Shown: positions 3,526 through 24,023 of the stretch, in pieces | How the letters are laid out: every line of letters begins with the position of its first letter | Position numbering within the stretch: the stretch's first letter is position 1 | Assembly: GCF_038025025.1 (NCBI RefSeq) | Contig: NW_027117348.1 | Location: forward strand, 186,001-250,000 | Reading direction: 5' to 3' | From: Phyllosticta citribraziliensis | Lineage: Eukaryota | DNA: 64,000 nt | Program-made: the position numbers and the translations under genes | Notes under the pieces: generated by a model | Seen by the model: only the letters and a program-made list of their open reading frames with translations | The model's database searches: none | What the model was told of the DNA's origin: nothing

Positions 3526-4435
3526 TCAAACTACAAGCAAAGCAAAGAACCAGATTTGGCCATGTCCACTCGACGCGGGAATGATGCCGACGTGCAGAGG
3601 TCGGCCGTCGTCGTCGAGGAAGCCTTTCAAGAGTACTTCAGATGCCACGAAGTTGATGACGGTTGAAAGCCTTTTCAAAAGATTCACATGAGCGGGGATG
3701 AGTTTCTGGCTTTGAAGGTCAAGTGCAACCCGAAAATTTGTCACTCTACGCAGCACCGGGAAAAACTATGTGAGCTTTTGCCAAACCCCAGACTCAATGC
3801 AAGAGCTGACACCAGCCAGGACCATGGGCTACGTGGTGAACCAAGGCGGAATGCTCCCACACCACCGCACACACTTTCATCTCAACCGGACTGGCCATGT
3901 CGTAGACTGAGGTGCCAGATACGCACCAGGTGCAGCGCAAGAGTCAAGATTTAGACCGAGGGATTCCACCGCAATCGGGAGCTGGAGCATGTCACACCGA
4001 AGCGCAGATGCCCGTATCCGCCTAGAGACTTTGGAGGTTGCTCACAAATCCAGCCACGAGGGCACCGTCTTGAAGAGAATGTTGCGGGAGGACCTGAGGT
4101 GTCGCAGGTGTCGCAGCTGCACCATGTACTTTGCCATCAGCCTGGATGACGAGACGAAGCTCGTCTCGTGCACCATCATGGTCGGCTGGTGGTCGATACG
4201 GAGTCGCCCTCGCGATGACGACGTTCCCCGAACGCACGCGACGATACACACCAAGTTTCTTAGGAACGAGACCCGGTCCCTGGATCTGTTCGACAGCCCC
4301 CTCAGAACATTCTCGGCAGATAAGTTGTCGGCAGGGCATTTTGACGCAGACCAGAACTTGTCTCTGGGCTACCATCAATGGTGTTGTACAATCTGGATGG
4401 ACGGACGGCCGCAGAGGGTTCGATGACGTTGGCAT
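3526..4435 (-). pseudogene. Probable degraded gene next to the AT-rich island
   Basis: Protein-like segments occur in shifting frames (3526-3756, 4042-4254, 4022-4435 with CVKMPCRQLICREC) and are separated by stops. No consistent intron model found. Confidence 0.25.
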
Positions 4436-5530
4436 AAGGTTTAGCTATATAAGGAGTAACAATTGATATAAGTAAAGGCATAGAACTAGATGTAATATAT
4501 ATACGAAACTGATTATCTTTCTTTTTTTATAAAGTACAATTTAAACTATAACGAATAATTAAAACATTTATTAACCTAACTACATCAGATATAATAAAAT
4601 AATTAGTATAAATAGTTAAACTAAAGTCTCTAGTAGAACCGTCCCCTATAATAAGATGCGCTAAAGCTATTAGAGTTAAAAGTTTATAAATATTAGCTAG
4701 AATAGTTTTTAAAGTAGGACGGGCCCTATTAATATAGAATATAGAATAAAGTTTACTAATATAAGGTAAGGCTCTTATATAAAACTCTAATTCTAGAGTT
4801 TTAACTCTAGCTCTTTCCCCTTTAACTAAATAAGGTAAATGAGAATAATAATAAGCTAATATAGAAAATATAAATTATATATATTTAGACTTTTCTAAAT
4901 ACTATTTAAACTATAAACTTTTATTAATACTATAATTTATAGTTATAAAGCTACTATTAGATAAAAGAAGACCTATTATAATACTTATATAAAAAGGGGA
5001 TAATTTTATTATATTTCTCTCCTCTTTTATAAATATACTGCCTACTATGCTATATAGATTAGAACCTTAAATTACTAAGGCTAAATAAGTTAAATAGCCT
5101 AGGTTTTTAAATAAATAAAACTATCCTAATTCTATTTTAAATAGTATTCCTTTATTTATAATATAAAGTATATATTATATATTCTTCTTCTTTTTTAAGT
5201 TAGAATTAGAAATATTTATACACCTTATAGGTATTAATATATAGCAAGCCTTTATAATATTATTAAAAATATAAGCTATTATTTATTTATCTAGTTCCTT
5301 TTTTATTTTATTATTTCTAATAAAATAAAAAAGGAATAAAGTATAAAAAATAAATAATTTATTTAAAGGTAAAGTATGCTTATTTATACTAATATTAGAC
5401 CTAGTAGAATTAGATAATACTTTTATTTTAGATATTTTAACACTTATTAAATACTGATCTTTATATAATGTATTTAACCCGAATTTACTTTTAGATAAAA
5501 TATGATTATTAATAGATTTTACATCTACAT
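4430..5530. repeat. AT-rich island with RIP-like signature (mutated repeat relic; origin unidentified)
   Basis: There is an abrupt drop in GC relative to the flanks, a visible excess of TpA and scarcity of CpA/TpG, and many stop codons. Confidence 0.8.
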
Positions 5531-6093
5531 TAAGATCAGATGCAGCTTTACGTGGGACGGAACGGGACGCAACTACGAGTGCCACCTTCCCTATTTGTCT
5601 TTGCTGGACCAGGGTAAGTACGAGCATCCCCGCACACTACAAGCCCTCGATTTCTCCATCAACCACGGCGCCTGTTCTCTCGTATTTGCGACCAGGATCG
5701 GGAGTTCCGAGTGCACTGTCAGCATGGAAAGCAGCTTTTCTGACTCGACGGAAATGGCTAACAAGTTCCAGGAACACGGTCACGATTCACGAGCCGAACG
5801 CGATTCCCCAAATCTGGTTCATTCAGGTAGTGATCAATTGATTGTCTCAGTGTTGTGCAAGATCTGCACCCCATACGAGCCGCGTGAAACTGAAAAGCGG
5901 AGAAAGCGTTCGCGAGACCGGGGAGAGGGCCTGTTTCGGCGATACAGCCACCGGCGGTTATGCACGAAACACTGCACGGCTGCGAGGCGATCAGGCGAGA
6001 CCAGGGGTACCGCCAACACAAAAGGGGTGCCTTCGCTGCACTCTCGCTCCGACGGGCTGTCGAAAGCGCAAGTAACAAAAGACAGTGAACACC

Positions 6094-7520
6094 ATGCGGC
6101 AGTCTCTCGCGCTCACTGCAGCGCTCGCCGGCCTCGCACGAGCATCCCTGCAAATCATCCCTGGCGCAACATGGACCGTCCAAGACACAGGTGAACACCT
6201 GCAAGCGCACGGCGCTGGCGTCATCCAGGTTGACGGCACATTCTACATGATCGGCGAAGACAAGACCGACGGCTCCAACTTCCAAAACATCAACTGCTAC
6301 TCTTCGACGGACCTGGTGGAGTGGAGCTACGTGGGCGCGCTTTTGACGTTGCAGGACAGCGGCGATTTGGGACCAGACCGCGTTGTCGAGCGGCCCAAGG
6401 TCATCTACAATGATGACACGAGCACATATGTCATGTATTTGCATATCGATGACTCGAGCTACGCCGAAGCAAAGGTTGGCGTCGCGACTTCGTCGAGTGT
6501 CTGTGGGTCCTACGATTATCAGGGCAGTTTTCAGCCGCTGGACCATCAGAGCCGGGACATCAATTTGTTCAAGGACGACGATGGCACGGGGTACCTGTTG
6601 ACCGAGGATGTAAGCATCCTTTCGATACAACCCGATATGGGTTTTGCTAACAAAGCCAGCGCGAAAACGGACTACGCATCGAAAAGCTGAGCTCAGACTA
6701 TCTCAGCGTCGAGAACAACACGTACCTCTTCTCCAACAGCGACTTGGGCATCGAAGCATCCGCCTTACTCAGGATCGACTCGACCTACTACCTCTTCGGC
6801 TCGCAACTCACCGGCTGGGACCCCAACGACAACTACTACGCCACAGCCACATCGCTCTCCGGGCCGTGGTCCGACTGGGCCCTGTTCGCCGACTCAGGGA
6901 GCAACACGTACAGCTCGCAGACGAACTTTGTCCTGAAGATCGAAGGCAGCTCGAAGACGACGGCCATCTACCTGGGAGACCGGTGGCACAGCGACGCGCT
7001 CTTTTCGAGCACGTATGTGTGGCTGCCTTTGACCATCGACGGGACGTCCGTCAGCATGAAGAACCAAGTCAACTGGGTCATCGACACGGCGACAGGCGAG
7101 TGGAGCGCCGGGCCCAGCGAGACGGAGTACGAGGGCGAAGACGCAACGCTTTCCAACGACGCCTCGTCCGTGAGCTGTGATGGATGTTCGGGAGGCAACG
7201 CGGCGGGGTACATTGGCGGCGACTCTGCTCCGGGTGGCACGGCGACTTTTAGCAATGTCAGCAGCCAGGCCTCTACGACGACGACGATGAGGATCAAGTA
7301 CCAGAATTTGGATAGCACCGCGCGGTATGCGGCTGTGTCGGTGAACGGAAAGGAGGTCGGTACGCAGGTTGCTTTTCTCCCGACTACCCAGGGCACGCCG
7401 GGGACAAGTGTCGTTCATGTGAAGTTGGCCGAGGGAGATGCGAATGAGGTTGTGCTTGCCGGGGTTGAAGGGAAGGGATACGGCCCGGATGTTGACAGAT
7501 TGATGGTGCCAGTGTCGTGA
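6094..7520 (+). CDS. Secreted GH43 glycoside hydrolase (exo-beta-1,3-galactanase-like, GH43_24) with a C-terminal CBM35/CBM6-like module, ~458 aa
   Basis: Exons are 6094-6609 and 6660-7520 (GTAAGC..GCTAAC..CAG intron). It has signal peptide MRQSLALTAALAGLARA and motifs LQAHGAG, FYMIGE, VVERPKVIYN, SRDINLF, GWDPNDN, YSSQT and YLGDRW. The CBM begins YEGEDATL..C..CSGG.AAGYIGG. Confidence 0.9.
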
Positions 7521-7982
7521 GTTCTCCAAGGGAGGCTCAGCAGGATGCGAAGGAAATCGAGAAACTTGACGACTCTTCTCTCGCTCTACTTATCCGTCAC
7601 TCCCAAATTCCCATCCAGCTCGTCACGGTTGAACAAACAATGCTTCAGCCCCGCTCTTTGGACTTACTAACTCCTTATCTGGGGAGGCTTTAGTCGGCTT
7701 CGTCAAAGCAATACTGTTGAGTCTCGTCTTTCGACCCCTATCACTTCAGTAGCACTCAAACAAGAGCGTGTTACCTGTTCTTGGGAACATGGAACCAGAC
7801 GGAGCACAAAGTCTTTGTTTTCCAGTGTTGCTCTCAAAAGCCTATTGTCCAACTCCTTCCCGGAACTGGCTGCTTTGTTCAAATACAATCGACCACAATG
7901 GCGATTGTATAAGAGTCAAAAAGAAGACTTCTCGGATTTCAACAACAAACACCATCCGAAACACTTTCTGCCATCTTCCAAC

Positions 7983-8735
7983 ATGTTTTCCACCAGGCCT
8001 AGCAGTTTGCAGCATGAAAATGGTGCCGCAATTAACCTTGCGCGTGGCCGTGCCGCCGAATTTATCGACCGGCCGCTCGAGGAGGGTGAAGAACTCGATC
8101 GAGCTGCCATGGGCGCGATAGATGAAGATTTCGATGACGACGCAACTGAGTTGCAGTATGAAGACTCCGACGACGACGCAATTTACTACGACTATGACCA
8201 CTTCGGACCCTCAGACCCCCACGTCAGAAGCATGTCAGCGATGAAATTCATCAAACTGCTGTGGAAACGCATTGTAGAACTCCCAGGCCGCAGCACTTGG
8301 CCAGACCTGGTCCGCACACAGTGTCATGCTGTGTTCTTTCTAGTGGTAGCCAAGGGAGCCTGTGAACACGACGATCTAATTGCGAGTTGGTACAACCGCT
8401 GGTATAGAGACCTGGAGCATTACCGTAACAATATCGTCATCCAGGGCATCCCCGATCGCGATGTTAATATGCTAGAACTCGCCGACCGCATCTACTATGA
8501 CACTGTCCGCGAGGTGGATTCCTTATCGATGGAGGATGGCAATCCATTTTCCTCAGGGCGAGCGGTTCAGCTGCTGGAAGTTTATTCTCTGCTTTTCTCT
8601 GCTAGATTCCTCCGGAGGGTCGCTCGCATCGATCCTTCGCGCAATATGGCCTTTGCCGGGTTCCAAACTGCTGTCATGCGGAGAGCGGTCGATCTTGGTG
8701 GCGAACTTGCCGAACCTATCCTCCTCCAGATGTAG
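7983..8735 (+). CDS. Hypothetical protein (~250 aa) with an acidic N-terminal stretch
   Basis: Long ORF open from 7815, first ATG at 7983, with protein-like composition. No domain recognised. Confidence 0.5.
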   Translation: MFSTRPSSLQHENGAAINLARGRAAEFIDRPLEEGEELDRAAMGAIDEDFDDDATELQYEDSDDDAIYYDYDHFGPSDPHVRSMSAMKFIKLLWKRIVELPGRSTWPDLVRTQCHAVFFLVVAKGACEHDDLIASWYNRWYRDLEHYRNNIVIQGIPDRDVNMLELADRIYYDTVREVDSLSMEDGNPFSSGRAVQLLEVYSLLFSARFLRRVARIDPSRNMAFAGFQTAVMRRAVDLGGELAEPILLQM

Positions 8736-9196
8736 TGGTGAGCAAGAAAGCAGTCTGAAAGCGTTGTTCAGCTATAGCTCCAATCAAAAGATAGAAAATT
8801 TTCCACGTCCTTCCCTGTCCAGCGTGAAAGGTGCCCAGTTTGGTGAGCCCCCTTTGTCAGATATCGACTCCCCTCCCTAATTAGGTGCAGTACACATCTG
8901 CTTTATCCACTCACCTACTACTTACCTGCGCCTTGCGACGTTAGTTACATTATTGCCCCATTTAGCCGCGATGTATCGCCCACTGCCCACCCACCGCGTC
9001 GACCACCCACGTCCACTGACCCACGTCCACTGCATCGTCAGCCGCGTCAATACCAACCGAGACTGTGGGACAAGGTAGACTTGTATGGAAGCAACGCGAC
9101 ACACAAAATCATCAACAAATGTTCGATTTCTTGTCAACTCGTTCTCGTCCAAATCATTCTGACACCATCCAACCAGCTCCAACCCTATCTCCAGCC

Positions 9197-10654
9197 TCAA
9201 TACCGACACCGGCCGCAGTACCCACATGAATCCGACGAGCAAGCAGTGTAGTCGAGCTCCGACTGCTCCGACTCTCCGTCCGAGTCCGAAACAATGACAC
9301 CCCCGATGGGACTCGCCGGCGACGAGTAAAACTCCTCATCGCTGCCATCCTTCCCGGACGACGCCTCGCTGTGAGGTTTGCTGACCGCTGCGCCATCGAT
9401 CCACCACTCTTTCACATCCTCTGGCAACACCTCCACGGCATTGCTCGCCTGCCCCCGAATCTCCAACACATCCAACTCCTTGCGGCGGACCTCCAGCTTC
9501 TTGTCCGGGTGCGCCTTCGCCAGAGCCGAAATCTTGCGCAGGACCGCCGCCAACTGGGCCAGCTTGTCCTGGTGCTGGTCCTCGAAAGCGTCAAGATTCT
9601 TGCGCACGTCGTCGACACGGATGTCTTTGAACGTGCCCCATTCATGGAAGGCGAGAACAAAGTTGGGCGTTTGCGAGAGCCACAGCCGCTGGACCTCTTC
9701 GCCCAAGACGTCCTGGTCCATCCGCTTGACCGAGCGCGTCTTCAGGTCGAACACGGTGCCTTGTGCAATTTTTCGACCGCCCGTCACCACTTTCAAGCTC
9801 GTGCCGGTGTCGATGGTCAGATGCGGGTACTCGTCGTCACAGTCGTCGCCTTCGGGATCCAAGTTCTTCAAGTACCCGTCACTCTCGTACCGGACGACGC
9901 AGTTGAGCCCAGCAAAGTCGTACTGCACGATGCGCTGATGAGACTGGGAGCCCTTGGTAAGTCCTTCCCACGTCGTGTATGCCTCGGGAAAAGTATGACC
10001 GAACCCTCTGACGCCCTGAAGTGTTTCCGTGGGCGAGTTTTCGTGTCGCACGAAAAAGACGGTGTTGCCGACGACTTGTACAAGGAACCGAAAGGGCCGA
10101 TCAGACTTGCGGACGAAGCGGAGAAGGTTTCCCAGTGTGCTCCCACAGGCGAAAATGTCGACGTTACCAGACGCAAACTCGCGATTCATGGCAAATATCG
10201 CGCGCACCGATGGCTCCGTTGGATGCTTGGGGTAGCGTGCGGCGTTGGCGTCACGATAGTAGACGCCCGCGTCTTCTTGCAATTGTTTCGGTTCCTCGAG
10301 AGGTGTCCAGGCGGGTGGAGATCCTGAACTGTCAGTTTGAAAGAATATGCTAAGATTTGAAAACTTGCCTGGTATCATGATTGTTGGGCTTTCCCCTTTC
10401 TCAATCCAGTTGTACGACGAAATATATTGGCAATTGGTAATCTTGGCCAGGCTGCGCTCATCCGGCTTAGAGTCCAAGTCCAGCTCGATGGTGTTCAAGA
10501 TGGGTCCCACCGGCGGAGACGGTGGTCTCGATTGCTCCTGTGGCTTTTCCCTCCGCGAAGTGTTGCTGTATCCGGACCCACCTCGGCCCCTACCACGAGT
10601 ACGACCGTATGGACGCCCACGCAAGTTTCCACGCTGCAAAAACTGGTCAGTCAT
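9197..10654 (-). CDS. DXO/Rai1-like PD-(D/E)XK nuclease-fold protein (~470 aa) with an RG-rich N-terminus and C-terminal Cys cluster; resembles fungal proteins often labelled 'geranylgeranyl pyrophosphate synthetase'
   Basis: Exons are 10654-10369 and 10323-9197, with a 45-nt in-frame GC-AG intron. Motifs in order are VDIFACGSTLGNLL, GFGHTFPE, VRYESDG, FDLKT and RLWLSQTP. The N-terminus has RGRPYGRTRGRGRGG and the C-terminus is DYTACSSDSCGYCGRCRY. No DDxxD prenyltransferase motif pair is present. Confidence 0.7.
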   Translation of the reverse strand: MTDQFLQRGNLRGRPYGRTRGRGRGGSGYSNTSRREKPQEQSRPPSPPVGPILNTIELDLDSKPDERSLAKITNCQYISSYNWIEKGESPTIMIPGKFSNLSIFFQTDSSGSPPAWTPLEEPKQLQEDAGVYYRDANAARYPKHPTEPSVRAIFAMNREFASGNVDIFACGSTLGNLLRFVRKSDRPFRFLVQVVGNTVFFVRHENSPTETLQGVRGFGHTFPEAYTTWEGLTKGSQSHQRIVQYDFAGLNCVVRYESDGYLKNLDPEGDDCDDEYPHLTIDTGTSLKVVTGGRKIAQGTVFDLKTRSVKRMDQDVLGEEVQRLWLSQTPNFVLAFHEWGTFKDIRVDDVRKNLDAFEDQHQDKLAQLAAVLRKISALAKAHPDKKLEVRRKELDVLEIRGQASNAVEVLPEDVKEWWIDGAAVSKPHSEASSGKDGSDEEFYSSPASPIGGVIVSDSDGESEQSELDYTACSSDSCGYCGRCRY

Positions 10655-11390
10655 GGTCTGAAAGATACGCAGAGCTTCAGGAATCCCAGCAACTGGCACG
10701 TGTGGATCATATACAGCCCTGCAGATCAAGTGTTCGGCGCCCTGTGGAGCGGGGAGTAGCATGGTTTGACCCAGTTTGGTCTCACGTCCAAACACAAGCC
10801 TTTGTCACAAACGCTGCCACGACATCCATTCAGGCTCTCGGGCGGGAGTGGAAGTCCCCGTTCTGCAGGGATACTGGGGGCGGTGACGAAACTCTGATCA
10901 ATCATCTCCAATCGATAAGCAGTTTCAACAGTGGTCAAGGATCAGAACGTGCTTTGCTTTTCCGCGATTTGCTCCCCTCTGCAACTAAACTTTGGTGCAA
11001 CGCGAACGGCAATCGAACTTGCCACCGCATTTGCGGCAGTCCAAGCAAAGGCATGATCAATCATTGGGTGCCTGCGAAGAATTCGCACTCTTGGCCACAG
11101 CCAGAACGGCAAAAGAAGGTTCGAGGAGCAAGAAAAGCGCAGAACTATCCCGATGCCTCGAACGGAAACGCCAAAAATGGCTCATTGGAAGCAAACAAAC
11201 TCATACTCAAAGGCCGATGCGGAATTGCTCTCGAGCCCACCAGAGGGCTGGCAGGGTAATGAGTCACCTTGTCCTATCGCATCCTAAACTCCCTTGGGAT
11301 CTCCTCCCGTTCGCTTGAGTCCTCTTTTTGATGCACCATTCCATTCACAAACCACCTATATTTGATCCCAAAGAATTACCAAACTCAGCC
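10655..11390. promoter_or_regulatory. Probable bidirectional promoter between the divergent nuclease-like and helicase-AAA genes
   Basis: 736 bp separate the two divergent ATGs. TGATCAATCAT occurs at 10895 and 11054; GAACGG(C/A)AA occurs at 11004, 11104 and 11160. Confidence 0.5.
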
Positions 11391-14300
11391 ATGGCGGCTA
11401 CTCCTGACGCAAAAACAACACGTTCGTCGCGACTGGCAACCTTCTTTTACGCTGTTCTCGACGGCAAACGCGTGGTTTCGTCTGCTCGAGAGGGCCAGCT
11501 TTTCATCGACGCCATTTGCGAGAGACCCAACCGCAAGGATTGCGTTGAGCGTCTTGTGGCCAGCCAGCCTGCAGCAAACGCTCTGCGAGCCGGCGTGCGA
11601 TTCGACACTTCGATCAACTTCATCAACGGCCACTTGGAGCGACTTCTAGCCTATCTCCGGGACCCTTTGCTGAAACAGCTTTGTAGCGGCGAGATCTTAC
11701 GTCGCCTGTTGCTTCTCATCGTTGACCCGCCAACCCTTTGGAATGTCTTTGTCGGTACTCAGAAAGAAGGACAACTGACGCCTGAATCAGAGCACGCTTT
11801 CGCATGGCTTCTGCTGGAGCTTTTGTCCTGGAATTCCTCTCCACCCGTTAACGTGCTGCCAATTGCTGAGGAGATTGTCTCCCGCGAGGCGTTGTCGAAA
11901 GGCTCGAATCACGAAGTCCGTGCCCTCATCTACCGAGTCAAACAAGCATTTAACGCTAGACGTCACAATGTATTCATCCCGGACTGCACCCACGATGGGC
12001 CCGGCGGCAGGCATGACAATGATTTTGTCGATTTCCGCGAGATTGCCATATACCCTACAGAAGATGAGCTGGAAAGCAAGGACAAGCCCTATTACCAACG
12101 GGCCGACGCAATCGACGATACACCCAGTGACCAACGCGTGGCCATGCTGCTTGACAACCAGTTTAGACTGCTGCGGGAAGACATGCTTGCAGAGCTCCGC
12201 GACGATCTTAAGGCTTCCCGGGACAAGAAGGGCCGACGCAAGAACATGCGTCTCCGGGGCATCAAGCTGGCTGGATTGTACGTGGGCACTTCGAAGTGGA
12301 GTACTCCGTTCTGCCTGACGGTCACGTGTGAAGCTGGCTTGGAGAAGCTCACTGAAATGAAAGGGGTACAACGCAAGTCATTTCTTGAAAAAGAAAAACG
12401 GTTCCTCAAAAACAACAGTTTTGGTTGCCTGATGGAAAGCAATCGCGTCGTTGCCTTTGCAACTCTAGAAAGGGTTGAAGAGAAGTTGCTTGTGGATCCG
12501 CCCCAAGTCACGCTTCGCATTCCAGACTCGCGAGCGTTGGAGGCGGTGTTGACCAAGTTGAAAGACAGGAAGAGTGAGGTCGACTTTGTCGTTGTGGATA
12601 CTGCTATGTTCGCGTATGAGCCGTTTCTGGAGCGTCTGAAGCGCCAGGTCGAACTTCCCCTTGCGCAGGAGATTTTGGGCGTTGATGGAGACGGCCGCGG
12701 ACGAGTGATTGAGTCTCCGATTTGCCCATCCGCTACCGCCGATTCCATCAAGGAGTCAGATGGCAGGAATTTGCAAGACTTTCTTGCCTTGCCGAATGAA
12801 GTCAACCTGGACCCATTGCAGCTGGAGTCATTCATATCCGGTTTGCGACAGACTGTCAGCCTCATTCAAGGACCTCCGGGTAGGTAACATTCATTTTTCA
12901 CGTACGAAACTGGCTAATTGGAGCCCAGGCACCGGTAAATCCTTCATCGGTGCTCTGATTGCCAAGGCTTTCCAAAAGTACACGTCTCACAAAATTCACG
13001 TCATTTGTTGCACCAACCACGCCTTGGATCAGTTTTTGGAAGATATGATGAACGTCGGCATTCCCGACGACATCATGGTCCGACTTGGATCAAAGTCCAG
13101 CTCGAGGACGGAACATGTCAACCTGCACCACGTTGCACAAAGTAAGCAGGCAAGGCGTAGCCAAGCAACCTGGGCGTTGATAGACAAGCTTCGGGAAGAA
13201 GTCGAGGACTACGAGGACATTTTGCGAAGACTTTTGGCGTCATTCAAACACGCCACCGTTGGAATCGACGAACTCTTCAACTTTCTTGAATTTGAGGACG
13301 AGGACTTCTTCGAGGCTTTCCAAGTGCCTGAAGAAGACGATGGGTTCACCAGGATGGGAGGACAAGGAGACATAGTCACCAAAGACTACCTCTACGAGCG
13401 CTGGCGTCGGAACCTCAATCCAGGAGTCTACAAAGACCGCACTACCCACTCTGCGATTTGGAACCTTTCTGCGGGCGACCGAGGATCAAAAATTGAGCAG
13501 TGGACAAGGCAGATCACGCAGGAACAGCTCACTGCAATCATCCAAGCGGTGGATTCCTACAACGCGTCCCAATCGCAGTTGAAGAAGACGCTGGACGAAC
13601 AGAAAGCCGCGATTCTCCGTTCCAAGCGGATCATTGCATGCACAACAACGGGGGCTGCAATGTATACGGAGCTACTCCAAAATGCCTCTCCGGATATTAT
13701 TTTGGTAGAAGAGGCCGGAGAAATACTGGAATCACATGTTCTGACTGCCATGACCCCAGCGACAAAGCATTTGATTCTGATTGGAGACCACAAACAGCTA
13801 CGCCCGAAGGTCAACAATTTTGCGCTCACGGTCGAGCGAGGCGATGGATACGATCTGAACCGGTCGCTTTTTGAGCGCCTTATTTTGGCTGGCTTCCCTC
13901 ACACCACGCTCAGCAGCCAGCACCGTATGCACCCCGAAATCTCGAAACTAGTCCGTCATTTGACTTATCCAAACCTGCGCGACGCACCGCGCACAAGCAA
14001 CCGACCCCCTCTGCGTGGCCTTCAAGACCGCGTCATATTCCTGAACCACAGCCATCTGGAAGACTCTGAGAATCGGACTGGGGAACGTCGCGAAGAAGGC
14101 TCCAGCGTTAGCAAGAAGAACGACTACGAGGCCGACATGGTGCTGCGGATTGTGCGATATCTGGGCCAGCAAGGATACGGGACAGGGGAGCAGGTCGTAT
14201 TGACGCCATATCTCGGCCAGTTGGCGTTACTGCGCGACAAGCTGAGCCAGGAGAATGACCCAGTGTTGAACGACCTAGACAGTTTCGACCTGGTCAAGGC

Positions 14301-17300
14301 GGGTCTGATTGCGCGTGAGACTGGGGCACACAGCAGGAGGAAGATCAAGCTCTCAACGATCGGTATGGTATTGGAAAGCTTTCGATGGCAAGGGCTGACG
14401 ATGCGACAGATAACTACCAGGGCGAGGAGAGCGACGTTGTAATTGTCTCTATGACGCGAGCAAACTCTAATGGAGACATTGGATTCATGAAGTCTCCCGA
14501 ACGCGTGAACGTGCTTCTATCGCGCGCAAGAAATGGACTTATCATCATTGGCAACTCGAAGACCTTTCTGAGCAGTAAGCAAGGCAAAGAAACTTGGGCC
14601 CCGCTCCTTGATTTCATGAGCAAAAAGGGGCACGTCTATGAAGGACTTCCGGTGAAGTGCGAGCAGCATCCTGACAAGAAGATGGTTTTGAAGAACAAGA
14701 AAGACTTTGCCAAACTTTGCCCTGACGGTGGATGCGAGCAGCCTTGGTAAGTCACCGCAACCGTCCTCCGCGCTGTGCCCCTCACTGATTAGAATCCAGC
14801 GGTGCAAAGCTCAGCTGCGGCGTCCACGAGTGCCCACAACGTTGCCACCAAATATCTGACCACTCGAAGATGGATTGCGAAAAGATGATGTCAGACACAT
14901 GCCCACAGAAGCACAGAATGACCTGGCGCTGCCAAAACGGCAGGCCCACAGCATGCAAGCAGTGCGACTTTGAGGCGAAGGAAATGGAGAGAAAGGTTGA
15001 GCGCGACTTGGAACTGGATATAAGGCGCCAAGAGCAGCAAAGACTTTATTCGTTGCAGCTGGTTGAGCTGCAGAATGAACTCGACTACCAGCGCCGGCTG
15101 CGTCGCGAGCAGGCGGAGGAGGCGGAGCATCAAAAGGTTCTGCAGCAGCATAAGGAGGACTTGGAGGATTTGAAGAGAGTTGGTACACGGACTGTTCCCA
15201 ACGGGCAGAACTCACACCTGAACGGAAGTGCGACGCAGATAGCAAGTCCGCCTCCAGCGGCTGCAAGTTCTCCTGGCAATGGGACCCTCAGCGAGCAAAC
15301 ATCCTCGGGACAAACGCCTGGGAGCTACCCTGCTGCGACCCCTGCAGATGAGACTGGGAGTGAATCCCCAAACAGAGATGACAAACGGCGAGGCAGTCAG
15401 CAACATCAAGGCCCGGGGAAAGGTGAGTGGCAAATGACATGTTCAGCAGCCAAGGACGAGTGGAAGTACCAAAAGCAGTACGAACGAGCGTCCAACCCCG
15501 CCCTCGACCAGTTGATGGACATGATTGGCCTCGAAAACCTGAAAGAAGAGTTCCTTGCCATCAAGACAAAGATTGATACCGCAGTCCGCCAAGGCGTGGC
15601 GATGAACAAGGAGCGCTTCGGCACAGCGCTGCTGGGGAACCCAGGGACAGGCAAGCCAGTCCCGAGCCATTCTGTCGTGGGACTTCACTGACAACCGAAC
15701 AGGAAAAACGACAGTCGCACGAATCTACGCCAAGTTCCTCTGCTCCGTCGGCGCACTGCCCGGGAACTACTTTGTCGAGTCTAGCGGGTCCGACCTCGCC
15801 AACGACGGCGTTTCCGGCTGCAAGAAGAAGCTTGAAGACATCCTGAACAACGGTGGCGGCGCCCTCTTCATCGACGAGGCATACCAGCTGGCCTCTGGCA
15901 GCAGCGCCGGCGGCAAAAACGTGCTCGACTTCCTGCTCGCCGAAGTCGAGAACCTCACCGGCAAAGTCGTCTTCATCCTGGCTGGGTACAACAAGCAGAT
16001 GGAAGCTTTCTTTGCGCACAACCCAGGCATTCCTAGTAGATTTCCTCGGCAGCTGCAGTTCAGGGATTACAAAGATGAGGAGCTGCTAGAGATTCTGATC
16101 TATGGCATCAACAAGAGATGGAACGGGAGGATGCAAGTGGAGCTTGGTGTTAGGGGACTGTATGGTCGCATCGCAGCCCGTCGGATTGGACGCGGAAGAG
16201 ATCGCGAAGGATTCGGGAATGCTCGCCAGGTTGAGAACGTTCTCACTCAGATCTCTGACCGCCAGGCCAAGAGACTTCGTCGTCAGCGCAGGGCAGGCCA
16301 AGCACCGGACGACCTGCTGCTTACCAAGGAAGACATGCTGGGTCCTGAGCCAGCGGACGCTCTCAAAGACAATGCTTCGTGGAGCAAGCTACAGACCCTG
16401 ATTGGACTAGGCTCGGTCAAGGATTCGGTCAAGTCCCTTCTCGACAGCATTCAGTACAACTACACGCGCGAGCTCGACGAAGAGCCCTTGATCGAGTTCA
16501 GCCTGAACAAGGTCTTCTTGGGGAACCCAGGCACGGGGAAGACAACAGTTGCCAAGCTGTACGGCCAGATCCTCGCTGACATTGGCTTCCTCTCCAGCGG
16601 CGAGGTGGTGGTCAAGACGCCAGCAGACTTCGTCGGCAGCGTCCTCGGCGGCTCCGAAGCAAATACCAAAGGCATACTTGCAGCCACCCTGGGCAAAGTC
16701 CTCGTCATTGACGAAGCGTACGGTCTGTACGGCGGCAAAGGTAACAGCTCTGGTGACCCGTACAAGACCGCCGTCATCGACACCATCGTCGCCGAAGTGC
16801 AGAGCGTCCCGGGCGACGACCGCTGCGTGCTCCTCCTGGGCTACCGTGAGCAGATGGAGGAAATGTTCCAAAACGTCAATCCCGGCCTGACGCGCCGGTT
16901 CCCGCTCGACTCGGCCTTTTCCTTTGACGACTTCTCCGACGACGAGCTGGCGGCCATCTTCGCCCTGAAGCTCAAACAGCAGGGCTTCAAAGCGACGGAC
17001 ACAGCTAAGAAGGTCGCCCTAGACATTCTGTCGCGGGTCCGCAATCGTCCGCACTTTGGCAATGCAGGAGAGATTGACATTTTGCTCAACGACGCCAAAA
17101 TGCGGCATCAGAAGCGCATATCCAAGGGCAAAGGCTTCATCACGGCGACTTTTGAGGCGGAGGACTTTGATTCCGATTTCGACAGAGGCGAGCGCGCGAA
17201 TACGAATGTGCTGAAGCTGTTTGAGGGCGTTGTGGGATGCGACGGTGTCATTGCACAGCTGCAGGGATACCAGCGGACAGTTGCAAATATGCGCGAGCTG

Positions 17301-18730
17301 GACATGGATCCGCGCGAACAAATCCCCTTTGCTTTTCTCTTTCGCGGTCCTCCTGGTATGTGGCTTCTCCACTGAACGAACGAAAGCAAGCTGACGGCAG
17401 CACAGGTACAGGTAAAACGTCCACAGCCCGCCGAATGGGAAATGTCTACTACGACATGGGCTTCCTATCCACAGACGAAGTGAAAGAGGTCTCGGCCACT
17501 GAGCTCATCGGCCAGTATATCGGCCACACGGGTCCCAAAGTACAAGCGCTCTTCACCAACGCCCTGGGCAAAGTGTTGTTCATCGACGAAGCATACCGTC
17601 TCGGCGAAGGCCACTTTGCCAAGGAAGCCATCGACGAGATCGTCGACTGTCTTACCAAGCCACAGTTTGCGCAGAAGCTGGTCGTCATCCTGGCGGGATA
17701 CACGCAGGACATCAACCGGCTCATGGCAGTGAATCCGGGACTGACGTCGCGCTTCCCGGAGACGGTGTGTTTTGAGTCTATGACGCCGGAGGAATCATTG
17801 GAGCTGCTCACGCAATGCCTGAAGAAGAAGAAGGGGCTGGATCTGACTGTGCTGGATCCGCCGAACGGCGCATTCCGCGCCCAGGTATTGCAGCTGTTCA
17901 CCACGTTGCGCGGCTTGCCGAACTGGGCCAGTGCAAGAGATGTTCAGACTATTGGCAAGGCTGTGTACGGGAACATCATGAAGTCTGGCAAACCGTCCAA
18001 ACAAGCTCGGCGCGTGACTGAAGCCGACATTGTCGTGGAGATGGAGAAGATGGTGAAGGAACGGACATCGAGAGGACAACACGCGCACGCTGTCCATGCT
18101 CCGCAGCAGCTACAGCCAACCATAAGCCTCGACCGCTCCTGTGATCCTCCGCCGGCAGTAAACACTTCTACCACGTCTGCGGTTGAGTCTGCGGTTGACA
18201 GCAATAAGGGCGAAACGAAGCCAGAAGACCCACCAGTCGACGAGGCGCCATCCGACACCACTGCCAGCGACAAGAGAGACGCCGGCGTAAGCGACGCCGT
18301 GTGGAACCAATTGCAAGAAGACGCACGCAAAGCAGAAGCCGCTGAGCACGAGTTCCAAGCCACAGCCGAAAAGGAGAGAGAACTCGAAAAGCAGCACGAG
18401 GCCGCCAACAAGGAGTCAAAAGAAGCCAACGAAAATGAGAAGCACACCGATAGCAGCGACAACGACGACGCCATCAAACGCGAGCGCGAAAGACGGCGTC
18501 TGCAAAAGATTCAGGAGCAGCGACGGCGAGAGGCCGAGATGGCTGAGATCCGGCGAAAGAAGGCGGAGCTGGAGAGACAACGCGAGAAGGAGGCGAAAGA
18601 GAGGAAGGCACTGCAGCAGATGGGCGTTTGTTGTGCGGGCTTCCGGTGGATCAAGCAGGCGGGTGGGTATAGGTGTGCAGGTGGTTCGCATTACGTGTCG
18701 GATGCGCAGATTCATGCCCATTTGCATTGA
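11391..18730 (+). CDS. ZNFX1-like (NFX1-type zinc finger) SF1 RNA helicase fused to three CbbX/SpoVK-family AAA+ domains, ~2362 aa
   Basis: Exons are 11391-12879, 12929-14362, 14410-14746, 14800-15650, 15703-17355 and 17406-18730 (7089 nt, frame-consistent). ZNFX1-type motif: GGRHDNDFVDFREIAIYPT. SF1 motifs: QGPPGTGKS, VEEAGE, LIGDHKQLRP, SLFERL, QHRMHPEI, LTPYLGQ, STIDNYQGEE, RVNVLLSRAR. NF-X1 finger: CGAKLSCGVHECPQRCH. Three AAA modules of pattern G(N/P)PGTGKT..(F/V)IDEAY..(A/L)GY..NPG...RF. Confidence 0.9.
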
Positions 18731-19270: not shown

Positions 19271-20543
19271 TTAGGCGGGCCCTTCAGTCGACGGCGACCA
19301 TATCAAATGGTTGTCTGAAAGGAGGAAAAGCTCCGCAGAATACCGGCCAAATACGTAGTTCTCCCCATCATCCTGCGCGGTCGCCATCCACGACAGTTCT
19401 GCTTTATGAGCGCTGTGACGGTTGGCTCTTTTGGCACACGTCAGGATGATGGCGTCGAGGTTCGTCATGATATTGAGGAAGTGCACAGCACAGAGCGTGG
19501 CCTTCTCCCTGTCCTTGAGACATATCCAGGCCCTTGTCGGGATGTGGCTGCTGGATGTGACGACAATGTGGAGCGTTTTGACGTTGGGGAAGCTGTCTCG
19601 CAATTCGTATGCCACCTACAGCAGGGATTAGATTTGAAACAGCGCAAATGTTCATGGCAGACGTACGAGAGGCATCAGCCTGGAGTCTCTGAAAGAGCAC
19701 TTCAGCGTGAGATGGGTCACTTGTGGAAGTGGAACTGTATGTCCCAATAACCCGAAGCAGCTGGTCTCCAACTCCAGATACCTGAGTCGAGCGAGGGACT
19801 GAACCTTTTGGAGTATCCAGACCAGATCGCGAGGCTGTCCTCCGTGCGCAGTGTAGACGCCGAGCGTTGGATCGTTGATGTCTTGGGGGAAGACTTCATA
19901 CTCGACGGCAGCAAGTGAGACGACGTTCTCACAGTGCACCAGAAGGAAGTTCGACGCGTGGTTGACGACGAGCTCTCGGACGTGGGAAAGGCGGAGACCT
20001 CCAGCGCTCGTCGTGAGATGCGCCAATTCGGCGGCGTGTCTGCTGTCAGGGACAATCACGACGAGCTTCCGCAAACGACTGGCCACAGAGGCGACGTGGC
20101 TCAGTGTGGTCGCTGCTCCATGGAAAGCGTGCAGTGAGCGAGCAACCCAGTCGTTGAAGGACGTCGCTGTGGAGTTGTCCAAAGCAAACGACCTTTTCAT
20201 TTGTCAGCGGCAGTCATATACTCGTAAAAATGTCCCTGGCTTACCGGAGATTCTTCAGCATGCTCGGCAACTGGGAGTTCAAGTCCGCGTGGTGGTCAGC
20301 AACATCTTTCAGCTTTCCGTGCCAGCCAAAGTCTCCAAAGTGGAGCTTGACTGCCCGGAACAAAAGCGTCAAGCAGGCGTTGTTGAGAACCTTGTTGACG
20401 CGCGAAAGGCTGACGAGATCGCTGGCACCTGCTTTGCTTCCGACTGGAGAGTCCTTTCCGACCAAGTGGACGACCTTCAGCAAGACTTCTATTGGGAGCC
20501 TGTCGAGGCTAAGACCTGTAGCTTGTGCCGTGGTGAAAGGCAT
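19271..20543 (-). CDS. F-box-like array member 1 (~389 aa)
   Basis: Exons are 20543-20245, 20192-19667 and 19615-19271. It has LDRLPIEVLLKVV..LVSLSRVNKVLNNACLTLLFR and ends WSPSTEGPA. Confidence 0.75.
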
Positions 20544-20933
20544 TGTAGGCAGCTGGAGGGAAAGAATTGGCGCTGAGCTGCTGGGTGGAACTGAAAGGTT
20601 GAAGGGGGGCAGATATACTGTTATTGTTCTGCTTCGGGGTACCACATCAGCGCGGCGCTGTGGTGGTCAACAGTGCACGTGGTTGGCGATGACGGTCCGC
20701 GCTCGATGGCACGGCCAAGCCACTGCTTTACAAAATGAAGGCCAAAAGATGGTTGTGTCATATTTTGGACTGCAAAGAAAGCCTTAGTGTTAAAAATCCG
20801 ACTGGAACCTTCCCCCCTCCAAGCCAGCAAGCACGGCCTTTTTGCGGATTTCCGCAATCGAATTTGTCAATTCGACATACGGTAGTTCTCCATTGACGTT
20901 GCCAAAGTAAATTCACAAGTATGAGGAGGTCGT

Positions 20934-21350
20934 TCATGTGGCATCAAAGGTGATGGATTTCAGCACACAATATACGCGACAAGAGAGCAAAAAGACTGTG
21001 TCGCAGTCTTTGATTGCGCAGACAGGGTCAAAGGCCGCAACCATTGCAGATAAGCGCTTTGGATTCGATACCACCGAGTGTAGTCTTCCCATTGAAGCAG
21101 AAACTGCGCACACTGCCGTGGTCAGGGACATGATGTAATTACTTGATCCCGACTCAGGTGGTCCTTCATTCTCGTGTGACCATTCTTTGCGTACCCCACG
21201 TATCGCAGCGGAGAACCCAGCGGCTTGTCCATAGTGGCAGGTTCCAAGCCATGTGAATTGTCTTTAAACAATCGCTCCCATACCAGTCCTTCAAAGTTCC
21301 AACTCTGAGCGGGCTTGGAGGCAGAGAACCAAATATACCACGTAATCTTT
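20934..21350 (-). pseudogene. Frameshifted relic with a GIY-YIG-like YVG..N...R...H motif
   Basis: PLRYVGYAKNGHTRMKDHLS continues after a frameshift near 21150 as GSSNYIMSLTTAVC. Confidence 0.3.
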
Positions 21351-21360
21351 TCCCCTTGCA

Positions 21361-22806
21361 TCACGCTGGGCCTTCAGAAGCAGGAGTCCATTCCTTGTAT
21401 CGAACACTCCCCAGCGTGAGACCATCAAGTGACTGCAGCTGCGAGTTCTACTTTTCGCCGGCAGGTCGCGTTGCTTTCCAATACGAGTTGAAGCGGGGCT
21501 CGTTGACACGTCCACGATTGTAGAACATGCACGCGATACCAAACTCCTCCAATCGTGGATGAAATCTGAAGAACCCCCTGGCCCAATGCGAGACGATAGC
21601 CTCTTGTTGGAATAGCATTGGTGCTGGAGACGCGTGGCTGAAGCGTCCAGTCACAACTAGGGTGAGCGACTTGATTTGCGGCATTTTGGTGGTCAGTTCG
21701 AGTCTGATCTGCAAAAGGTCAGCCTCCATTTTCGATGTGGGACTGTGGGTTGGCTCTCTCTCTTACACTCCAAAGATGCGTTAGGCCGAAGCGAGGAAGC
21801 TCGCCGACCAACACCAAGCGCTGAAGGTTATCCATTCTTGGAAACGCTCCCCACATATCGTCGAATGCGCAATCTATTTCCAGGCTCCGAAGGTGCTTCT
21901 TACTGGCGACACGTTCGAGGTATTCCATGAAACCATTTGGTTGCGGGTTGAGTGTTGAAAAGCCGACAAGTGTCAGGGAGGTGATGTTCGGGCACCAGTC
22001 CAGAAGAAAATGCGCACATTTGTCGACAACCAAATCTTTTACGAATGGAAGCTCAGGGGCGCCTTCAGAGTCCGCTGTAACGACAAGTTGCCGGAAATTC
22101 CTAAAACCAGGGGCCAGAGTGACGGTGAGCTGTTCCAGCTTTCTTGACGTGCGGAGGACCCGAAGCAGAATTAATCCTGCCCTGTTGATCTTCAGGAGAC
22201 TGGGCGTCCGGGGTCTGTTGTGCCGTCCTTCGCGCGCCTTCAGGGCAAAGGACCTCGAAAGCGGTTAGGAAGTGGAGTATTCAATCGGAGTGATGGGTCA
22301 AACCTGATGCTTCGGAAATCATCCGGCGTCTCGTGCATCGTCATGTCGGGAGGGAAAAGGCCGGCATATTTCCCTGGCTGATACAGGTCGGTGAAGTCGA
22401 CAACTACGGCACGGAATAGCTGTCTCCGGCACAACTCCCTCATTTTGTAGCTGGTCCGAGAGAGGTTGACCAGGGAGCTTTCTTCCGTTCGATGGACTGG
22501 AGACATGGCTCCGACCCAGCCGACGATCTCCAAAATCATCTCTCCAGGAAGCGTCGCGAGGGTCTTTATGGTTTTCCGCCCGGTGGGGATCTTGGCGGGA
22601 GCAGAGAGAGCGCGGCGGCGAGACGTGTCGCGGTCAGGCATCGGAAGGCCAGATTGGAGAGATGACTGGAGCGAGAGCGAGCGGCGTTGAGTGTGAAGAA
22701 CCGGAAGGTCAACTCTCGAAGGACGAGGGAACAGTTGGTCGGTCCGGGAGGAGGCGATGGGAGCGGCGTCTTGAAGGCTCGTGCGGCGGCCAAAGACGAA
22801 AGGCAT
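21361..22806 (-). pseudogene. F-box-like array member 2 with a premature in-frame TAG (truncated allele or pseudogene)
   Basis: Exons are 22806-22304, 22253-21767 and 21708-21361. It has LATLPGEMILEIVGWVG..LVNLSRTS. TAG at 21448-21450 is followed in frame by NSQLQSLDGLTLGSVRYKEWTPASEGPA*. Confidence 0.75.
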
Positions 22807-23189
22807 CTCTTCGATGCTGGAAAAGCTCGACACTGTGATGGAAAGGTCAGCAATGGGTTTTTGCTGTCAAGCTGGCCTCGGCGTCGGCGAAGACTCACTG
22901 AAGTTGAAGGCGAGAAAGAGAGATTTATAGACGAGCCGGTATTCAGCAAGATCGCAGAGTGGGCGAGGACGCTGAGGAATGTAAAGTCCAGAGGGCTGTG
23001 AAAGGAGCAAAGTGCAGAAGGAGGTACTGTTTCTTGGTCGTTGAAAAGCGACAGAGGTTGTTGGACGCCCACCGTTGGGAACAGTGCACGTGATGTGTTG
23101 AAACAATCGGTGCACTGGCGACTCTGCGCCCGCAAAGCAGCGCCATGCCAAATTCGGATCGCTCTCACTCAGTAGTGACAGGCTGCAAT

Positions 23190-23385
23190 TAAGATCGCGG
23201 GTTTCGAAGCGTGAGCTAACGTCTTTTTTCATGGCGTTGACACCCACCATCGAAGGGTGGAAGTACAGCAAATCGTCGACGTAGATGACCAGATATCCAG
23301 CGTGCGGAGTCTTGAAAACGCAAGGATCGGCTTCCAAGGTGGTGTATCCTAGCGAAATCATGTATTCAGTGAACTCCTTTCAACC
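23190..23385 (-). mobile_element. Ty1/copia reverse transcriptase fragment
   Basis: The translation *KEFTEYMISLGYTTLEADPCVF..YLVIYVDDLLY..KKDVSSRFETRDL has the copia RT features D.CVF, YVDD and F...DL. No LTRs or other pol domains are visible. Confidence 0.8.
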
Positions 23386-23495
23386 TTGCGCAGTTGCAAT
23401 TATGTACTTCTTTGATAGGAAGGTCTTTGATAACAGCGACCGGTCGCGAGACTGGGAGAGATTTAATCCTTGATAGACCAGCACTTGGAACAGGC
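23386..23495 (-). pseudogene. Short duplicated fragment of F-box-array exon 3
   Basis: LNLSQSRDRSLLSKTFLSKKYIIATAQ matches member 3 (DRSLASKTFFSKKYIIATAQ) and the neighbouring fragment (LKISQSQDRSLASKTFRAKMYTTGTAQ). Confidence 0.75.
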
Positions 23496-23588
23496 TATTT
23501 AAAAAAACCATGTGCATATGGATCTCCGACCGTAATGCCTGAATGAGAAATATACATTATCGTCCTAATCTTCCCACTCGGCCGGTGA

Positions 23589-23930
23589 CTACACTGGCCT
23601 CTCATGGCTTTGCCTCTACGTCTTCCAGCCGAACACGACCAAGTCGAGGGTATCTGGCGAACTGAGTTGCAGCCGCCTGGTCCGATATCTATTGCCTGGA
23701 TGATACCCTGGCGGTCTGCTGGGCTTCCAAAATGACGAGAGACGCGGCTCATAGATCAAGCCGTCAGGGTGGGCAATACAGGCCAGACTAAACTCCGTAA
23801 GTCTGGCATGGTTGATGAAGAAGCTCTGAGCCGTGCCTGTAGTATACATCTTTGCCCTAAAGGTCTTCGACGCCAAAGACCGGTCTTGAGACTGAGAAAT
23901 CTTTAATCTTGAAAAGACCAGCGTTGTGGA
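23589..23930 (-). pseudogene. Orphan copy of F-box-array exon 3, closest to member 3
   Basis: Translation is DRSLASKTF..EFSLACIAHPDGLIYEPRLSSFWKPSRPPG..RTRRLQL..GWKT*RQSHERPV*. The internal stop replaces the conserved Trp, and exons 1-2 are absent. Confidence 0.75.
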
Positions 23931-24023
23931 GAAGCTATTTGACAAAAATACATATGAATGTCCAATTGAACTGCCTGGATCAGAATATACAACGTCTGCC
24001 CAACCTTCCAGCCCGGCCTATGG

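Follow-up and report, generated by a model that had tools for sequence, protein, structure and literature searches.

The minus-strand gene at 9197-10654 of a 64,000-nucleotide stretch of Phyllosticta citribraziliensis (contig NW_027117348.1, positions 186,001 to 250,000; hereafter the window) encodes a 470-residue protein, known in databases as a geranylgeranyl pyrophosphate (GGPP) synthetase, which almost certainly has the fold of the RNA 5'-end enzymes DXO and Rai1, as judged from its predicted structure. The gene stands head to head with another, coding for a large protein with a ZNFX1-like helicase and three AAA+ modules, and the two products are very probably functional partners. We lean towards the view that the DXO-like protein is an RNA 5'-end nuclease distinct from the housekeeping Rai1, acting together with the helicase/triple-AAA+ protein and most likely on foreign or aberrant RNA. 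The DXO-like gene has the following features:

9197-10654, minus strand: DXO/Rai1-fold gene, 470 amino acids, two exons, with a predicted folded core at about residues 46-408
10368-10324, minus strand: in-frame 45-nucleotide GC-AG intron, placed by the sequence and by the lengths of 485 vs. 470 residues, and joined across in a contig of run X1
9200-9253, minus strand: conserved C-terminal Cys4 motif, DYTAC-x4-CGYCGxC, a possible zinc knuckle

Read through, the open reading frame (ORF) gives 485 residues, because the intron, overlooked in the initial annotation, adds 15 residues to the 470 of the top database match, P0002 of P. citribraziliensis, which is 100% identical to the locus over residues 1-470. 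Runs X1, X2, and X3 are contigs, none recorded as RNA and with no expression level; since the X1 contigs show spliced joints, X1 is probably RNA.

The AlphaFold2 model has a mean predicted local distance difference test score of 82.4, with low confidence at residues 1-32 and 418-470. Its 14 strands and 8 helices form the two mixed beta-sheets with helices around them that make up the overall DXO/Rai1 fold. When compared by VIA-align with 48,161 representative PDB chains, the model finds DXO1, Rai1, Dom3Z, and Dxo1 as the seven top chains (Z 25.7-20.0, root-mean-square deviation 3.2-3.9, 275-316 aligned residues, 9-15% identity). Chains of eIF3d come second (Z 14.8-16.1), and the first chain outside the DXO fold reaches Z 5.1. 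Foldseek agrees, with DXO1 as the top match (E 5.8e-14). An initial annotation of the window, made from the nucleotide sequence, had proposed a DXO/Rai1-fold nuclease, and the model and both structural comparisons bear this fold out; the all-helical prenyltransferase that was looked for as the contrary outcome did not appear, the model being mixed alpha/beta.

The fold is invisible to sequence searches alone. P0002 contains no Pfam family, and among 100 family members Pfam RAI1 was touched by one (E 0.029), below the cut-off, and Pet127 by two (best E 0.19). Searches of PDB sequences with the DXO-like protein returned no match by phmmer and one chance match by hmmsearch, and an hhalign comparison of the family with the exons of the genome's own Rai1 was not significant. 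In a language-model atlas, 'GGPP synthetase' clusters came top, and a nematode cluster (49% RAI1) at 0.89 is a lead only. One family member, P0251, is called 'Decapping nuclease' by automatic UniRef naming, which means that the DXO link has come up at least once in automated annotation.

The record name of P0002 is 'geranylgeranyl pyrophosphate synthetase', and many relatives are named likewise; the link to this label made in the initial annotation is thus real. GGPP synthase, a trans-prenyltransferase, has an all-helical isoprenoid synthase fold and two conserved DDxxD motifs. Across 392 sequences of the present family, the core contains no conserved DDxxD pair, and DDxxD-like strings occur mostly in the acidic tail and in loops. 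One DDxxD/DDxxxxD-like string of the present protein, DDCDDEY at residue 255, belongs to an acidic loop that is variable in the family and does not represent a conserved prenyltransferase pair.

The search of the 31-Mb genome with the DXO-like protein gave a single match, and the canonical RAI1 is separately encoded at G000:C12:337641-339012. Among the matches listed, at least 120 relatives have no Pfam domain (867 relatives found, 8000 scored candidates), and the named ones are all filamentous ascomycetes. A profile built from 100 of the 120 listed relatives found 2827 representatives at E ≤ 0.001 and 877 at 1e-30, with 150 listed. All these family counts refer to the filamentous ascomycete branch, distant (non-Pezizomycotina) members lying outside the sample. 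Searches tuned to close relatives revealed no family relative among 57 pattern matches in viral contigs or 36 in prokaryote genomes, and a similarly tuned search found no viral structure resembling the model at E ≤ 0.001.

The ends of the protein show features of their own. The N-terminus, encoded at 10559-10624 (minus strand), is an Arg/Gly-rich stretch of low complexity (RGRPYGRTRGRGRGG), typical of RNA-binding or granule-forming tails. The Cys4 motif sits behind a long acidic linker of low confidence; it is absent in some members (e.g., several Penicillium-like ones), whose helicase partner remains full length.

Active-site motifs

Residue counts are based on 392 family proteins of at least 300 residues, of which 346 were left after 90% dereplication, giving about 345 residues per column; DXO/Rai1 motifs are as defined in PMC4513879. 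The four motifs picked out in the initial annotation do lie in one minus-strand frame: GFGHTFPE (10006-9983), RYESDG (9892-9875), FDLKT (9751-9737), and RLWLSQTP (9688-9665). The assigned segments are:

10130-10153, minus strand: FACGSTLG, putative motif-I equivalent at a strand-to-helix transition, placed from the secondary structure of the model
9983-10006, minus strand: GFGHTFPE, motif-II-like, from sequence, conservation counts, and ungapped placement
9875-9892, minus strand: RYESDG, motif III, E242-x-D244 (D in 343 and E in 296 of 346)
9737-9751, minus strand: FDLKT, motif IV, D288-L-K290 (D/E in 339 and K in 342 of 345)
9644-9688, minus strand: putative motif V-VI region, with R308 at the Gln position, Q313 at the helix end, and A320-h-H322 for G-h-R

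The metal/catalytic core of E242, D244, D288, and K290 is conserved. Columns conserved beyond chance among the 346 members are G204 (343), D244 (343), K290 (342), T291 (345), and Q313 (332). The EhD pattern of motif III is present with a small, not hydrophobic, middle residue, E242 being replaced by G, A, Q, K, or others in 50 of 346 proteins, and the EhK of motif IV appears with a conservative D for E (D in 302, E in 37 of 345). Conservation thus supports the earlier assignment of ESD to motif III and DLK to motif IV. The idea that this D signals altered specificity does not stand: it says little, because Pet127, an active exoribonuclease, has a DLK motif (PMC9014873), and 37 members carry the E in any case.

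The other motifs deviate. Gly156 (10144-10142) takes the motif-I Arg position of Rai1/DXO, with G/S/A/N/T in 332 of 343 members, R in three, and K in one, which agrees with the previously noted absence of this Arg, the position being derived from secondary structure. Motif II reads G204-H-T-F-P208-E209; Pro occupies the Glu position in 327 of 345 members and an acid follows one residue later in 325, so that the earlier reading of GFGHTFPE as GxxFE is not supported in that form. In ungapped placement of segments of the genome's own Rai1, this motif-II register ranks second and motif IV fourth, while motifs I and III were not placed. The best such placement in the motif V-VI region puts Gln on R308 and G-h-R on A320-F-H322 (z 4.1), and the Q-to-R spacing of 14 residues in Candida Rai1 (CaRai1) is the same as in the register from R308 to H322 (PMC4513879). 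Column 308 contains R in 302 and Q in 7 of 345 members, and the K-x4-phi-h-Q of motif V is not found; nor is the GhR of motif VI, with A320 in 319 and H322 in 339 of 346. RLWLSQ (W310-x-x-Q313), which had been read as the Rai1 W-x-Q motif, does not fit this role, since the register gives R308, not Q313. The non-significant hhalign pairs Trp residues instead, via an opened gap, which speaks against the R308 register.

In mouse DXO, Asp236, Glu253, and Glu192 bind metal, and Arg132 (motif I) together with Gln280 (motif V) holds the 5' phosphate (PMC6943137). As an Arg is lost at the motif-I site and gained at the motif-V site, a compensating swap from G156 to R308 in the 5'-phosphate pocket is plausible, and the pocket appears altered relative to Rai1 by the sequence register. 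Altered specificity is therefore plausible through motifs I and V, though not through the D of motif IV. By predicted fold and core, the protein resembles the DXO/Rai1 enzymes; because it deviates in motifs I, V, and VI and scores below the cut-off of Pfam, it is filed as a DXO/Rai1-like branch and not as a member.

The DXO-like protein is likely to be catalytically active. It could instead be a non-catalytic DXO-fold reader of 5' ends or caps, or an adaptor, whose role is to recruit or regulate the helicase-AAA+ protein and not to cut RNA. We regard this as unlikely. It would account for the altered motifs I, II, V, and VI and for the 50 substitutions of E242, and there are precedents in the cap-binding domain of eIF3d, which has the same fold (Z 15-16), and in Drosophila Cutoff, described as catalysis-dead (PMC11571810). 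However, D244 (343/346), K290 (342/345), and the acids at 288 (339/345) and 209 (325/345) are maintained despite about 46% mean identity, a degree of retention unusual for a dead enzyme, and in the structural comparison the enzymes (Z 20-26) lie nearer to the model than eIF3d does.

The head-to-head partner gene

The helicase gene was outside the reading of the initial annotation. It is arranged with the nuclease gene as follows:

10655-11390, no strand: divergent intergenic region of 736 bp, presumed bidirectional promoter, from the gene ends and related loci
11391-18730, plus strand: partner gene, about 2350 amino acids, six exons, from sequence matches, models of relatives, and X3 joints

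The partner consists, in order, of an ARM-like helical domain, a ZNFX1-like superfamily 1 (SF1) helicase, a Cys/His-rich stretch, three CbbX-type AAA+ modules, and a C-terminal Cys/His motif; the ARM-like domain, a beta-barrel, and the SF1 helicase are seen in the predicted model of a relative. Four introns of the gene are joined in run X3, which comes from a related organism. Sequence matches in the PDB are to ZNFX1 (E 2.6e-81), Upf1/Nam7 (1.5e-30), and CbbX (2e-30), ZNFX1 being the best match by fold as well. With SF1 motifs, an ARM-like N-domain, and ZNFX1 as the closest structure, the protein is of the ZNFX1 type. All 66 relatives in the alignment, out of 120 listed, have the same helicase Walker A, GPPGTGKS, and the Walker motifs of the three AAA+ modules, in their commonest forms, are intact as well. 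These modules are found at the position where ZNFX1 has its C-terminal E3 ligase module (Miz-like + RZ finger). Of the public gene models P0263 and P0521, which differ at about 15640-15705, one drops the first AAA+ Walker A by another splice choice; the alternative model and an X3 joint retain it. A complex prediction for helicase residues 5-470 with DXO-like residues 46-470, run without alignments and covering one fifth of the partner, is uninformative at a score of 0.01.

Linkage was counted from the nuclease side, in the best 80 of the 151 metagenome stretches with a gene for a relative. The helicase gene occurs in 56 of these loci, always upstream on the opposite strand (one locus has an extra plus-strand match), at a match-to-match gap of 248-1031 bp. 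Where at least 1.5 kb of upstream flank is available, the pair is linked in 49 of 53 loci, and clustering at 80% nucleotide identity gives 31 of 34 informative clusters. None of six other neighbours in the window recurs in any of the 80 loci, and among 806 flanking ORFs from 38 loci no third conserved gene occurs in more than three.

Adjacent identifiers for both proteins were found in 17 assemblies, listings being compared by eye for the assemblies present in both. By locus tag these are SLS55_003157/8, LTR86_010454/5, GP486_002828/9, LTR53_005068/7, Q9212_002191/0, TWF481_002392/1, TWF694_004980/1, H072_1968/9, TWF506_010362/3, Q9157_006552/1, and LTR85_000449/8; by accession, KAK7531992/3, EKG10224/3, EME81373/2, KAL4786944/5, OCL14802/1, and KAF2139492/3. 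Spacing and orientation are kept over six fungal classes. A second family member in one of the 17 assemblies, LTR53_001355, lacks a partner among the matches listed, and one nuclease/helicase record pair of Penicillium glandicola lies on differently sized contigs. The correlated pairwise identities of the two genes (19 pairs) are expected from shared descent and were not used.

The 8-mer CAAGGCTG was found in 14 of 35 intergenic regions vs. 1.1 expected from the flanks, the motif having been chosen post hoc. It occurs in loci L007, L009, L012, L019, L025, L026, L027, L029, L030, L035, L036, L037, L063, and L069, of which about eight seem to belong to a single clade and several of those have promoters that can be aligned. 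It is absent from the window's own 736-bp promoter. The related (A/T)GAGGCCTA is present in 7 of the 35 regions. It is possible that CAAGGCTG marks the site of a shared regulator, which makes it a weak lead.

Elsewhere in the genome, a region of less than 170 kb at G000:C5:604078-772024 has five matches to AAA_12 (Upf1/ZNFX1-type helicase), of which one contains an internal stop; a single-protein search found no DXO-like match beside this cluster.

Proposed role and competing explanations

In the proposed mechanism, the DXO-like protein would be a PD-(D/E)XK-type RNA 5'-end hydrolase or exonuclease. D244, D288, and E209/E242 would bind a divalent metal and K290 would aid hydrolysis, as in DXO. 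The 5'-phosphate pocket would be rewired by a shift of its Arg from G156 at motif I to R308 at the neighbouring motif-V site, and the preferred 5' end is therefore probably unlike that of Rai1. Both genes may be co-expressed from the single bidirectional promoter. The helicase would load onto single-stranded RNA, the AAA+ modules would strip or remodel RNA-bound proteins, and the nuclease would take off the 5' end and then degrade the RNA or pass it to Xrn1. The likeliest substrates would be RNAs, foreign or aberrant, whose 5' ends are non-canonical. That the pair acts against viruses is a fair guess to entertain, somewhat short of an even chance. Still more tentative, and on balance doubtful, is the idea that the two genes give filamentous ascomycetes a cell-autonomous antiviral system that destroys RNA alongside RNA interference (RNAi) and is laid out like the helicase-nuclease defence operons of bacteria. 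In it, a ZNFX1-like sensor-motor with triple-AAA+ output would be joined by a dedicated DXO-fold nuclease, its rewired pocket suited to viral RNA that is uncapped or abnormally capped.

The family member P0188 is NCU09356 of Neurospora crassa. Its neighbour by tag, NCU09357, is described in PMC5384783 as uncharacterised and related to SAD-3/Hrr1/RnhA, though falling outside the cluster that these form. PMC3571971 places it, as an ATPase/helicase with one significant branch, among rapidly evolving sex-associated genes with qde-2 and the RNA-dependent RNA polymerase NCU08435, and in PMC6468284 it is conidiation-induced, ADA-6-dependent, and named 'stage V sporulation protein K'. According to the supplement of PMC6468284, expression of NCU09356 and NCU09357 correlates with a log r of 0.91 (Spearman 0.62, n=8), and NCU09355 does not co-vary with the pair (r -0.07). 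In PMC11708020, the Thermothelomyces member MYCTH_2313154 is up 2-3 log2 in later cultures.

A number of points weigh against a nuclease partnership acting on foreign RNA. Four of the six Rai1 motifs (I, II, V, and VI) deviate, including the metal-ligand position of motif II. The motif register comes from sequence and secondary structure, not coordinates, and motif I was left unplaced. In 3 of the 34 informative clusters the partner is missing and the motifs are unchanged. NCU09357 was taken as the partner by its consecutive tag, not by sequence or orientation. The co-expression is weak evidence because n is 8 and NCU09358 (r 0.88) and NCU08435 (0.85) correlate nearly as well; the values come without a genome-wide background. 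The published regulation found for the pair is developmental only (conidiation), and neither tag is among the virus-induced genes in the text and three of the four supplements of PMC7648066.

The supplements of a CHV1 transcriptome paper contain no match to six annotation terms, and Pa_3_10430 is of unknown function in one published table, which is uninformative. NCU04472, a virus-induced helicase, was considered as a partner and rejected, as it is not adjacent by tag to NCU09356. The literature searched, outside which most subscription papers lie, contains no published work on the DXO-like family or the gene pair, and its main texts do not mention NCU09356.

The Neurospora data would also suit a SAD-3/Hrr1-like module of endogenous RNA silencing, or of developmental RNA turnover in conidiation or the sexual stage. 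The kinship of NCU09357 to SAD-3/Hrr1/RnhA (PMC5384783), its ADA-6-dependent rise in conidiation (PMC6468284), its place in the sex-associated list (PMC3571971), and the later-culture increase of MYCTH_2313154 (PMC11708020) are all in line with it, and the weak matches (Z ≤ 5) to DNases among PD-(D/E)XK folds allow a variant in which the pair acts on DNA. The fold match, however, is specifically to RNA 5'-end enzymes, and such a module would share the mechanism of the best explanation, differing mainly in substrate; its chances seem slightly poorer than those of the non-catalytic reader. Passive linkage of unrelated genes sharing a bidirectional promoter is improbable. Head-to-head gene pairs are frequent in compact genomes, and the three unlinked clusters fit such an accident, but spacing and orientation are conserved while no other neighbour recurs, and both proteins have RNA-acting folds. 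The GGPP synthetase of the label, for which database names speak, has practically no chance, being ruled out by the mixed alpha/beta model, the lack of a Pfam family in P0002, and the missing DDxxD core pair.

The proposed RNA 5'-end nuclease can be set beside several known systems. With DXO, Rai1, Dxo1, and Arabidopsis DXO1 (Pfam RAI1, PF08652) it would share the whole-domain fold (Z 20-26, about 300 aligned residues), the order of motif elements, and the E-x-D and acid-h-K-T core. It differs in the 9-15% identity, the sub-cut-off Pfam match, the changed motifs I, II, V, and VI, the coexistence with a canonical Rai1, the RGG-like N-terminus, the Cys4 tail, and the link to a helicase gene. Pet127, a mitochondrial 5'-3' exoribonuclease, is likewise a PD-(D/E)XK RNase with a DLK motif (PMC9014873), but it is much longer and shows no significant sequence match (2/100, best E 0.19). 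The eIF3d cap-binding domain and Drosophila Cutoff also exemplify reuse of the DXO fold outside capping quality control, whereas eIF3d gives lower Z (15-16) and the present family retains the acidic and lysine core.

The partner, for its part, is like human ZNFX1 and fungal SAD-3/Hrr1/RnhA in its ARM-like domain, 1B barrel, SF1 helicase, and Cys/His-rich stretch. Unlike ZNFX1, it has three CbbX-type AAA+ modules at the position of the long zinc-finger stalk and E3 ligase module, and its gene is linked to a DXO-fold gene. Human ZNFX1 is reported to cluster single-stranded RNA in antiviral defence (bioRxiv 2025.10.14.682297; bioRxiv 2022.12.12.520048). In the RNAi of C. elegans, EOL-1/DXO and the helicase DRH-1 act together (PMC7735679), likewise a DXO paralogue with an RNA helicase in RNA defence; this is an analogy and not homology of system, the helicase being of another class and gene linkage not being reported in the abstract of that paper. 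The fungal OLD-ZAO pair, two antiviral genes whose adjacency is conserved (PMC12754623), is comparable by analogy only, as the proteins are unrelated.

Other features of the window and significance

Antisense to the DXO-like gene, there seems to be a spliced transcript that enters the coding region and crosses it. Its relevant feature is:

9957-10021, plus strand: antisense GT-AG intron across the motif-II codons (GTAAGT...CTGAC...AG), seen in X1 and X2 contigs from two studies

The plus-strand GT-AG introns 8843-8890 and 9121-9176 are, like this one, skipped in X1 contigs, the joint at 8843-8890 being on a contig of depth 1251. The longest ATG-initiated ORF of the joined transcript, 214 amino acids, is probably a shadow frame. 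Speculatively, the transcript may damp expression of the DXO-like gene.

The plus-strand ORF at 7815-8735 (306 amino acids, no Pfam family) is convergent with the DXO-like gene and occurs in none of 80 related loci. At 6085-7520 (plus strand) there is an ordinary secreted GH43 glycoside hydrolase with a CBM13-like domain, unlinked to the pair elsewhere. The stretch 4001-6000, with 36% GC vs. about 54% around it, is possibly the remnant of a repeat altered by repeat-induced point mutation. A row of similar F-box-like leucine-rich ORF fragments at 19271-25731 (minus strand; F-box_4 E 0.001 at 24394-25731) suggests a local tandem expansion, some copies being apparently broken.

Through the reassignment, a large fungal family (2827 representatives at E ≤ 0.001, 877 at 1e-30) loses its false label of terpene synthesis and joins the RNA 5'-end nuclease fold. 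As eukaryotes typically have one DXO/Rai1 gene (PMC11571810), a second widespread branch with a putatively rewired pocket would be new to the field of RNA decay. The pairing with a ZNFX1-type helicase offers the SAD-3 relative NCU09357 a candidate partner, and a non-RNAi route of RNA defence becomes directly testable in Neurospora. In general, the head-to-head pairing across distantly related moulds suggests an undescribed two-protein unit of RNA surveillance.

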